Source: Octopus vulgaris
Lineage: Eukaryota
Direction of reading: 5' to 3'
NCBI GenBank assembly: GCA_951406725.2
Contig: OX597833.1
Span: forward strand, 67,828,001-67,892,000
Length of the DNA stretch: 64,000 nucleotides
The translations under genes and the position numbers were made by a program. Below are positions 25,750 to 48,208 of this stretch, piece after piece. How positions within the stretch are numbered: position 1 is the stretch's first letter; each line of letters opens with the position of its first letter. The notes beneath the pieces are model-generated. The model searched no databases, was not told where the DNA came from, and saw only the letters and a list, made by a program, of their open reading frames with translations.

Positions 25750-26215
25750 ACTTCAGGCCCATCACTCTGCGGATTTGAAGATTCTGGTCAAGGTGTTAGC
25801 CGAGAGGTTGGCTCTTTTCATCAAGAAACTGGTCGACAAGGCGCAAATGTGCGCCGCGTCGAGTACGACTATCCATGACCACCTCCATCTGATGCGCTAC
25901 ATCATAGACAGGGTAGTTAAGGAACCTGGTATGGGTGGTGGGGCTGATGAATTTGGATCAATCAAAAGCTTTCGATAGGGTACACCATCGCCACTTGGAG
26001 GCTGTCCTTATAGTGGCTGGTTTCGGTCCCGTCTTCCGCAGTTTGATTGCTGCCTTATACAGCGGCATCCGCTCGGTAGTTTGCGTGAATGGTCATCTGT
26101 CCAGACCATTTAACATCATGCGTTCGGTCCATCGAGGATGCTCCTTCTCGTCGCTTGTGTACGTAGTCACTCTTGAGCCACTACTGCGGAAGCTTTCGAC
26201 GTTAATGGTCATTAC
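25750..26215 (+). pseudogene. Degenerate reverse transcriptase fragment of an L1/Tx1-clade non-LTR retrotransposon
   Basis: RPIT.., ADLKILVKVLAERL, IHDHLHLMR, NLDQSKAFDRVHH, VNGHLSRPF, SVHRGCSFSSLVYVVTLEPLLRKL are RT N-terminal motifs. Frameshifts at about 25765 and 25940. Confidence 0.92.
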
Positions 26216-26345
26216 CGATACCCCCGGGCAACCCGCTGAGCAGTGCCGCAATTAGATCCCATTTCTGCGCGATACAGCCTCGTCTACCGCGACTCTGTGG
26301 CCCATGGTCCACCAACACGAGCCGTCAACCCGTCATTTGCCGGTG

Positions 26346-43426: not shown

Positions 43427-43649
43427 ATCACAATCAAGGAACGGCCATAATAGGCCATTCACCCACTAGAAATAACAGCCAAAAGCTTTAACCGCAAAAT
43501 AACATTAATACCGTAAACCAGGAGAAAATTGAAAAACTTAAAAGTTTTTCAATTTTCTCCTGGTTTACGGTATTAATGTTATTTTGCGGTTAAAGCTTTT
43601 GGCTGTTATTTCTAGTGGGTGAATGGCCTATTATGGCCGTTCCTTGATT

Positions 43650-43654
<5 letters not shown>
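43427..43654. repeat. Perfect palindrome, 113-bp arms, 2-nt spacer
   Basis: 43427-43539 is the exact reverse complement of 43542-43654, checked base by base. Confidence 0.97.
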
Positions 43655-43697
<43 letters not shown>

Positions 43698-43781
43698 TAA
43701 GGGTAGAAATTGATATTTATCAATTAAAACCAGTGGTCTAGCATATTAAATAAGAATCCGAAGATTAAAATATTTATATAT

Positions 43782-43983
43782 ACCAATTAAGGACTGAACA
43801 CGAAAAGTGGACAGTCAACATGCTAGATATAGACGTCAAATCGCCATTCTCCACAAAAAGATTATGTTCTCAAATCAAACGAATGAGTTTGATTTGAGAA
43901 CATAATCTTTTTGTGGAGAATGGCGATTTGACGTCTATATCTAGCATGTTGACTGTCCACTTTTCGTGTTCAGTCCTTAATTG

Positions 43984-43985
<2 letters not shown>
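43782..43985. repeat. Perfect palindrome, 99-bp arms, 6-nt spacer GAATGA
   Basis: 43782-43880 is the reverse complement of 43887-43985. Confidence 0.95.
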
Positions 43986-44028
<43 letters not shown>

Positions 44029-45983: not shown

Positions 45984-46257
45984 CGTTGGTAGACGAGAAG
46001 CGTCTACTACAGCGGCTAGGACTACTAGATCACGGAATTTCACCTTGCTATGGGCTCGTCAGTGACAGATATCCAGCTGCGCGATAACAGCCGAATCTCC
46101 CATCAGCGATTTGTAGAATATCAATGGCTATTCAGGTAGTGATGTGGGGAATAGCCATGGGCTCAGCAATTTTGATGGGGAAGGTACTGCATATTATGAA
46201 CACCGAAAGGATGAACGGCAAAGTTGGCCTAAATAGAATTTGAACTCAGAACGTAAA
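45984..46257 (-). repeat. 274-bp direct repeat, copy 1 (contains an HHR and part of a family B SINE)
   Basis: Collinear with 47158-47431 at a constant offset of 1174; substitutions only, as far as seen by eye. Confidence 0.95.
46012..46080 (-). ncRNA. Type I hammerhead ribozyme motif, copy 1
   Basis: Minus strand GCUGG-AUA-UCUGUCA-CUGACGA-GCC-CAUAGCAA-GGU-GAAA-UU-CCGU-GA-UC^UAGUAGU-C-CUAGC. Predicted cut between 46028 and 46027. Confidence 0.6.
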
Positions 46258-46432
46258 AGTGAAGTTGAGCATAACAACTGTGATGATGATGATGATGATA
46301 GTTGCTGTGGTGTTTCGGGTGGTAATGTGGATAATGCTGATCGTGATGATGACGGCGATGATTGCGGGAAGATGTTAGGAATAAAGTAAGACGCGGAGGA
46401 GCAGAATAACGATCTGTGTGATGTTGATAATC

Positions 46433-46853
46433 TGGCGAGCTGGTAGAATCGTTAGCACGCCGGGCGAAAGACTTAGCGGTATTTCGTCTACCGCATACGT
46501 TCTGAGTTCAAATTCCGCCGAGGTCGACTTTGCCTTTCATCCTTTCGGGGTCGATTAAATCAAGTACCAGTTACGTACTGGGGTCGATGTAATCGGCTTA
46601 ATCCGTTTGTCTGTCCTTGTTTGTCCTCTTTGTGTTTAGCCCCTTGTGGGTAGTAAAGAAATACAAATAGGTATTTCGTCTGCCGCTGCGTTCTGAGTTC
46701 AAATTCCGCTGAGGTCGACTTTGCCTTTCATCCTTTCGGGGTCGATTAAATAAGTACCAGTTACGCACTGGAGTCGATATAATCGGCTTAATCCGTTTGT
46801 CTGTCCTTCTTTGTCCTCTCTGTGTTTAGCCCCTTGTGGGTAGTAAAGAAATA
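46433..46853 (+). mobile_element. Family B SINE followed by a tandem 5'-truncated second copy
   Basis: Two consecutive GGTATTTCGTCT...CCCCTTGTGGGTAGTAAAGAAATA units. Confidence 0.92.
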
Positions 46854-47157
46854 GATAATGAAGTGTTCACGAAGATTATGATCGCGGAGAAGAGCGAGAT
46901 GTTGAGCAAGCTGATGACAACGACAAGGAAGAAAGTTTTAATTCATGGTGTTGATATTGATGAGAATTGTATCCCAACAATGATCCTGTTGGGAATATAT
47001 AGGGAAAAAAAGCAGGGATAAAATACTTCTTTCTAAAAAGCAATCTTGATCTCTAACTTAATGTAGATGTAGTTTTAGAACACAAAATCCTGCGTTATTT
47101 GTCTTGAGAAGACCTCTGATATGGACTTGTGCTGCATAAAAGAACTCTTCGTTGTCT

Positions 47158-47431
47158 CGTTGGTAGACGAGAAGCGTCTGCTACAGCGGCTAGGTCTACT
47201 AGATCACGGAATTTCACCTTGCTATTGGCTCGTCAGTGACAGATATCCAACAGCGCGATAACAGCCGAATCTCCCATCAGCGATTTGTAGAATATCAATG
47301 GCTATTCAGGTACTGGTGTGAGGAATAGCCATGGGCTCAGCAATTTTGATGGGGAAGGTACTGCATTTTATCAACCCCGAAAGAATGAACGGCAAAGTTG
47401 GCCGGAATAGAATTTGAACTCAGAACGTAAA
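47158..47431 (-). repeat. 274-bp direct repeat, copy 2
   Basis: Matches copy 1. Here the family B SINE portion continues to its head at about 47497. Confidence 0.95.
47186..47254 (-). ncRNA. Type I hammerhead ribozyme motif, copy 2
   Basis: GUUGG-AUA-UCUGUCA-CUGACGA-GCC-AAUAGCAA-GGU-GAAA-UU-CCGU-GA-UC^UAGUAGA-C-CUAGC. Stem I has 6 of 7 pairs. Predicted cut between 47202 and 47201. Confidence 0.62.
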
Positions 47432-47699
47432 TTGCTGGATGAGATGCTGCTAAGCAATTTTGTCAGACACGCTACCGATTTTGCCAGCTCACCGCTTTAA
47501 GAAAGAATTAAAAAAAAAATGAACGTGATGATATTAATGGCGTCCATGAACATGGTGTTTTCGGTTTTCCTTTTGTTGTCCGATTTTTCGTCTTGTTGCT
47601 GTAGAAGAATCTTCACATAGCAACGCACTCACATATACTATCACACACACACACACACACACAGTAACACACACTCTCTCTCTCCCGCTCTCTCTCACA

Positions 47700-47830
47700 C
47701 ATGCACACACACAGGTAGATATACACACATGTATACACGTACATATACATGCGTACATACGTATACACACGCACACAGGCGTACGTATATACATGCAGAG
47801 ACGTCCATATACACGCACACACACGCTTAC

Positions 47831-47867
<37 letters not shown>

Positions 47868-48175
47868 CTCTGTCTCACATACAAACACAGGTAGATATAC
47901 ACACACATGTATATACGTACATATACATGCGTACATACGTATATATATACGCACACAGGCGTACATATATACATGCAGAGACGTCCATATACACGCACAC
48001 ACACGCTTACATATATATATATACACACACACACTCTCTCTCTGTCTCTCTCTGTCTCACATACAAACACAGGTAGATATACACACACTTGTATACACGT
48101 ACATATACATGCGTACATACGTATATATACGCACACAAGCGTACGTATATACATGCAGAGACGTTCATATACACG

Positions 48176-48185
<10 letters not shown>
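47700..48185. repeat. Three tandem ~180-bp microsatellite-derived units
   Basis: ACACAGGTAGATATACACAC...ACATGCAGAGACGT.CATATACACGCAC occurs three times. Confidence 0.9.

Positions 48186-48208
<23 letters not shown>

Follow-up and report, generated by a model that had tools for sequence, protein, structure and literature searches.

Introduction

Non-LTR retrozymes of metazoans were defined by Cervera and de la Pena (2020; PMC7229834), who described units of 350-390 bp in the mussel Mytilus and proposed their mobilisation by Penelope-like elements. In frogs, non-LTR retrozymes have been linked to Penelope terminal repeats, with the mechanism left open, and eight of nine vertebrate retrozyme dimers did not cleave (bioRxiv 10.64898/2026.07.22.740005). 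Insertions of Penelope-like elements themselves include partial tandems and inverted, 5'-truncated copies (10.1101/2021.04.23.441226). Plant LTR retrozymes, as summarised in PMC7229834, carry type III hammerheads in elements of about 700 bp with a GC content over 55%. A partial literature search returned no description of a cephalopod retrozyme; the supplement of PMC7229834 may list the family described below.

We analysed a 64,000-nt stretch of the Octopus vulgaris genome (GCA_951406725.2, contig OX597833.1, positions 67,828,001 to 67,892,000; hereafter the window, whose own coordinates are used throughout), where a reading made from the letters alone had pointed to two hammerhead ribozymes in direct repeats, laid out like a retrozyme. 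The account that we consider very probable is that the two type I hammerheads are decayed and likely inactive, that they stem from an old family of 346-bp non-LTR retrozymes, that the left copy (A) is a later duplicate of the right copy (B), and that the interval between them is likely an accident.

Two hammerhead cores in a direct repeat

The direct repeat occupies 45984-46257 and 47158-47431 (274 nt, spacing 1174, 95% identity, 14 differences). On the minus strand both copies contain CUGACGA, GCC..GGU, GAAA, UU-CCGU-GA and AUC, with C3 at 47236 in copy B and 46062 in copy A, and C17 at 47202 and 46028, respectively. The positions of the repeat and motif thus confirm what the sequence-only reading had described, namely two 274-bp repeats 1174 bp apart with co-oriented hammerhead cores on the minus strand. 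Both copies keep the AUC triplet and the full set of 11 core bases, with no core changes, and the combination of CUGANGA, GAAA, NUH and three helices, open at helix I, agrees with the type I topology that it had assigned. The features of the locus are as follows, where monomer positions refer to the 346-bp unit of the next section.

45984..46257, minus strand: copy A, a 274-bp excerpt of the B locus, comprising about 180 bp of retrozyme and a truncated SINE piece; 95% identical to B
46010..46081, minus strand: type I hammerhead of copy A, predicted to cleave after C17 at 46028; intact core but decayed helices; 70.4 bits against family model R1
46183..46255, minus strand: SINE piece of copy A, SINE query 69-141, without the first 68 positions, which B has from position 7
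46258..47034, no strand: spacer of simple repeats, SINE dimer and host sequence, without a monomer match
46428..46853, plus strand: younger SINE dimer in the opposite orientation to the SINE pieces of A and B, with both of which it forms inverted repeats
47035..47337, minus strand: copy B, the parent, a 304-nt monomer fragment from 210 through the cleavage site to 167; 81% identical to the family majority
47184..47255, minus strand: type I hammerhead of copy B, predicted to cleave after C17 at 47202; intact core but decayed helices; 63.8 bits against family model R1
47357..47493, minus strand: high-copy, diverged SINE-like head directly upstream of B, running past the 274-bp repeat; SINE query 7-141, 73%

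Elsewhere in the window, two near-perfect hairpins (43427-43654 and 43770-43997, with 113- and 111-nt arms closing loops of 2 and 6 nt) may be a foldback insertion or an assembly artefact. A microsatellite-rich tandem of three 180-bp units lies at 47642-48191, and a reverse transcriptase remnant lies at 25917-26252 on the plus strand (RVT_1, E 1.1e-05, below the cut-off).

A dispersed family of 346-bp monomers

A search of the 2.8-Gb genome with a 183-nt query gave 111 candidates, of which the best 40 were scored. All but the two window copies were 72-82% identical to the query, and these 38 further places mean that the motif is not a chance occurrence. The family alignment with its flanks has a period of 346, sequence downstream of the ribozyme recurring upstream, and from this alignment we take the true unit to be a circularly permuted 346-bp monomer with one hammerhead. 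The proposed origin from a retrozyme-type element therefore stands, since the motif belongs to a dispersed family of such monomers with one hammerhead each, while the proposed unit of 1174 nt, or about 750 nt before the SINE dimer inserted, gives way to one of 346 nt.

After removal of loci duplicating one place, 61 places, the window's included, were 70-88% identical to the family majority (median 83%). The 3' end of the longest piece fell at monomer 195-209 in 23 of them (2.6 expected if uniform) and at 150-210 in 43, and the 5' ends were scattered, with 5 and 15 in the same two intervals. Pieces lay in both orientations at 20 of the 61 places, and more than one unit stood head-to-tail at 29, the longest run being 842 nt, or 2.4 units. 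In the same sample, a microsatellite was found within 45 nt of the 3' end at 17 places, against an 11% background. Because the samples were ranked by score, these counts are lower bounds. Later searches gave 892 and 1632 first-look candidates, and an exact 20-mer had 21 scattered matches, 7 of them within loci already sampled; the family presumably comprises at least hundreds of copies. None of the 21 exact matches lay in an array, a search that a subfamily with an altered 20-mer would escape. Young copies were not found either, the best relatives of well-kept copies reaching 79% and 84%, and by its sequences the family is apparently extinct. A larger element sought in the shared flanks of 47 loci yielded other repeats alone on either side. 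At locus L036 (2065-2315, minus strand), there are near-identical tandem units of 107-110 nt in which monomer 239 is joined to the cleavage site; given a microhomology of 3 nt, they could equally well have arisen by slippage or from a mini-circle.

Judged on its anatomy of clustered 3' ends, scattered 5' ends and inversions, we assign the family to the non-LTR retrozymes. Like the metazoan members described in PMC7229834, including those of Mytilus, it has one type I hammerhead per unit of about 350 nt, a GC content under 45%, no ORF and a highly self-paired predicted circle, and it shares its genome with Penelope-like elements. The monomer, with a GC of 0.436, falls among units of 150-450 bp with one type I hammerhead and GC under 45%, and the circular family majority folds at -115 kcal/mol (z -7.2 against 100 shuffles, 67% paired). 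It differs from the members in that account in that no long arrays were found (longest 2.4 units), in that the sampled copies are all 12-30% decayed, and in having A-U at pair 10.1-11.1. Dispersed monomers and dimers, and inactive dimers as predicted for the window pair, are shared with the vertebrate non-LTR retrozymes of bioRxiv 10.64898/2026.07.22.740005; unlike what is reported there, no Penelope terminal repeat related to the 346-bp monomer was found. Partial tandems, inverted 5'-truncated pieces, microsatellite targets and a palindromic helix III recall Penelope-like insertions (10.1101/2021.04.23.441226; PMC4209133), although, unlike those elements, the 346-bp unit has neither reverse transcriptase nor endonuclease.

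The family ribozyme and a sister family

The family's hammerhead is a real motif. Its majority form has 6 bp in helix I, 4 bp in helix II and, across helix III, a palindrome of 10 nt. PMC4209133 describes this as the canonical architecture of type I hammerheads in metazoans, which cleave as dimers; it is not the minimal Penelope type. The core is kept in 34 of 60 family copies. In 20 loci from a whole-monomer query, core positions were conserved at 0.956 against 0.861 for base-matched other positions, a difference to which search bias may contribute. The better-kept copy L052 matches Rfam Hammerhead_HH9 (RF02275) with the same helices over the whole model, but at 31.9 bits against a cut-off of 52. 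The covariation check that had been suggested gave nothing above shuffles within the 346-bp family, as expected for decay from one master.

Through the HH9 scan we reached a sister retrozyme-like family (L150-L163, e.g. G000:C12:78740639-78741029) with a unit of about 355 bp (353-356 bp in two loci). Its helix III palindrome is identical to that of the 346-bp family and helices I and II differ; by eye in 12 copies, the fold is kept with 5 of 10 helix I and II pairs changed on both sides, and core position 9 is U in 10 of the 12. The two families are about 75% identical over 69 nt at monomer 121-188, near the 3' end.

Other hammerhead-like sequences turned up in these searches. HH9-like matches at L143:1501-1590 and L144:1501-1574 (44.6 and 39.6 bits) are unrelated to the monomer. 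Four of 30 Penelope-type loci (L074, L089, L090 and L091) share a hammerhead-like motif about 700-800 nt after the endonuclease match, which is unrelated to the 346-bp family and likely a terminal-repeat ribozyme of their own.

Decay of the window ribozymes

The Rfam scan that the sequence-only reading had recommended gave no hammerhead match in the window, at gathering score or at E<=10, and the window copies do not score against Hammerhead_HH9. Unconstrained folding did not produce the hammerhead in either copy or beat shuffles (z -0.1 to -0.4). Each copy has one broken pair apiece in helix I, helix II and the distal helix: helix I contains a C-A mismatch, and the fourth pair of helix II is lost. 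The C/U difference at 47250/46076 does leave its pair intact, as had been noted, while the difference at 47226/46052, which had been placed in loop II, is position 10.4, part of a C-G pair in the family and thus the broken fourth pair of helix II. The G-U at 10.1-11.1 was seen correctly in both copies, though not the G-C expected in its place; the family pair is A-U (A in 51 of 66 copies, U in 59 of 66), so the window copies have departed from A-U. Full pairing of helices I (6 bp) and II (4 bp), present in the family majority, is thus absent from the window copies, and the helix III palindrome is broken, with a self-duplex of -2.7 against -12.9 kcal/mol in the family.

Constraining the window copies to the hammerhead fold carries a penalty of 15.7 and 17.7 kcal/mol against a family median of 8.3, and under looser constraints 13.7 and 15.7 against 7.0. 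Only 3-5 of 47 family copies are as costly, which makes the window copies worse than about 90% of the family; by number of broken pairs (4 of 22, where the family median is 3) they are only moderately worse. Both window hammerheads are decayed and, on this folding evidence, are predicted to be inactive. As the energies omit tertiary contacts and magnesium, inactivity is a prediction, and with the core bases and AUC intact in both copies slow cleavage could persist.

Origin of copy A

Copy B covers the monomer from 210 to 167 and copy A from 210 to 44 only. Of the 32 positions at which B departs from the family over 181 columns, 28 are departures shared with A, and each copy has 4 changes of its own; 42 other family alignments share 0-8 of these departures, which indicates that the copy was made after most of the decay. 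Beyond the repeat, the retrozyme extends leftward and the SINE rightward at B only, and the SINE beside A begins at query position 69, on the edge of the repeat. Since both elements continue at B and are both cut at A, A appears to be an excerpt of B. Both repeat ends cut through older elements and are therefore not the ends of an element of their own. A partial tandem from a 1174-nt circle would run into the spacer, which the observed pattern contradicts.

Genomic searches agree with a local event. The spacer piece 46840-47060 had one match from one genomic candidate, in a search that skipped common words; the 1174-nt interval did not recur as a genomic unit; and no other descendant of B was found above 82% identity to B among 40 scored places. 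If A is a local duplicate of B, the 1174 bases between the cleavage sites probably do not form a mobile element. A short direct repeat lies at the left junction of A, the junctions show no A-tail or clear target duplication, and they would fit templated repair. The SINE-like repeat we take to be a tRNA-derived SINE, and ARAGORN found no tRNA in it. The caveat attached to the sequence-only reading, that a fragment bearing the hammerhead had simply been duplicated locally, is thus the part that the shared departures, truncated neighbours and single-copy spacer piece bear out.

In layout, the window pair resembles plant LTR retrozymes as summarised in PMC7229834, where a spacer is likewise flanked by direct repeats that each carry a hammerhead; it differs from them in its type I hammerheads, its GC of 43%, its single-copy spacer and a repeat that is an excerpt of SINE and retrozyme. 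Nor does the pair consist of consecutive tandem units with a hammerhead in each, the criterion used for vertebrates (bioRxiv 10.64898/2026.07.22.740005).

A putative route of mobilisation

Tandem copies would have been transcribed, and the hammerhead, probably dimeric via the 10-nt palindrome of helix III, would cut the RNA to 346-nt units, which may then circularise. A Penelope-like reverse transcriptase/endonuclease would prime at an AT-rich target, and reverse transcription would begin about 200 nt downstream of the cut and run round the template, leaving insertions that are 5'-truncated, sometimes inverted and up to 2.4 units long. One such insertion at the window locus would have decayed by about 19%, and a 274-bp piece of it, with part of the adjacent SINE, was later copied 0.9 kb away, likely in DNA repair or replication. 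We infer each of these steps, from transcription, dimer cleavage and circularisation to Penelope-like target-primed reverse transcription and the mechanism of duplication. As copies span the cleavage site and exceed one unit, the template would have been a circle or an uncut multimer.

Remnants of Penelope-type endonucleases are abundant in the genome (9783 candidates, 150 scored). At one locus, L025 (1-1606), a decayed Penelope-type reverse transcriptase and endonuclease is followed, after about 170 bp, by a co-oriented monomer piece (248-7), which extends 7 nt beyond the cleavage site and stops at a TA run. The frame matched no Pfam family, and its Atlas neighbours are GIY-YIG (18%) and HTH_animal (17%); we take it to be Penelope-type on these neighbours and on its motifs. 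An ORF with reverse transcriptase and GIY-YIG was joined to the repeat at this one locus of the 61 and nowhere in the window region, and the monomer was found in 0 of 29 and again 0 of 29 Penelope-type loci other than L025. The L025 arrangement is possibly a template switch or a nested insertion. It is also a fair possibility, though less likely than not, that a Penelope-type enzyme has one preferred priming site on the circular RNA, about 200 nt away from where the hammerhead cuts, and rolls on across the junction, with the stretch of about 75% identity to the sister family just before that site serving as the recognition signal and L025 recording a template switch between retrozyme and helper.

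Alternative explanations

That the 1174-nt interval is itself a retrozyme unit, released by the two hammerheads, circularising and moving, would suit the two co-oriented intact cores, and PMC7229834 reports circles between hammerheads that range from 150 to over 1000 nt. The interval also folds strongly (z -8.3 for a 1000-nt part), but this signal disappears without copy A (z -1.1), which points to the inverted SINE pieces. The family unit is 346 nt, and the SINE runs outside the supposed unit, contrary to what a partial tandem of a circle would give. With B having no descendants, the SINE continuing at B and a spacer piece in single copy, the interval as a mobile unit is largely refuted, and we give it next to no credence. 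Should the ribozymes of the duplicated fragment still cut, minus-strand read-through would release a 1174-nt RNA that may circularise, giving an accidental circle. The cores have indeed stayed intact through about 5% divergence (K2P 0.053), none of the 14 A-B differences touching them; yet 14 differences in 274 nt would miss 12 core positions by chance with a probability of ~0.5, and the fold cost is 14-18 kcal/mol. The upstream SINE promoter, if Pol III as we presume, would stop at the T run at 47141, and no host exon was seen, 83 of 234 candidate frames having given no Pfam match over the cut-off for a host gene. We regard such a circle as very improbable. Copy A might instead be an RNA-mediated copy of a SINE-driven transcript of the B locus, given that its 5' truncation lies within the SINE and its end falls 17 nt short of the first T run. 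It landed only 0.9 kb from its source, however, with neither A-tail nor clear target duplication, and runs 44 nt beyond the cleavage site, which implies an uncut template anyway; this origin, too, seems quite unlikely.

A broader question is whether the 346-bp family consists of free retrozymes or of the pLTRs of an autonomous Penelope-like element, mostly preserved as 5'-truncated ends. Both the fixed 3' ends and the inversions are traits of Penelope elements (10.1101/2021.04.23.441226), and L025 places enzyme remains upstream of a co-oriented monomer piece. Against this, such remains occur at that single locus of the 61, no second match to its linker appeared among 40 scored, further monomer and not an ORF lies upstream at 29 of 61, and other Penelope-type loci carry a different hammerhead-like motif. 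We therefore judge the pLTR interpretation unlikely.

Significance

If, as we favour, the window holds a decayed retrozyme insertion and a local duplicate of it, the pair itself matters little. The 346-bp family carries non-LTR retrozymes into a cephalopod genome, and its insertion anatomy lets the proposal of rolling, Penelope-driven reverse transcription be tested by counting. Were the preferred priming site to prove true, these fossils would record the movement of animal retrozymes, which the literature cited here still presents as a hypothesis.
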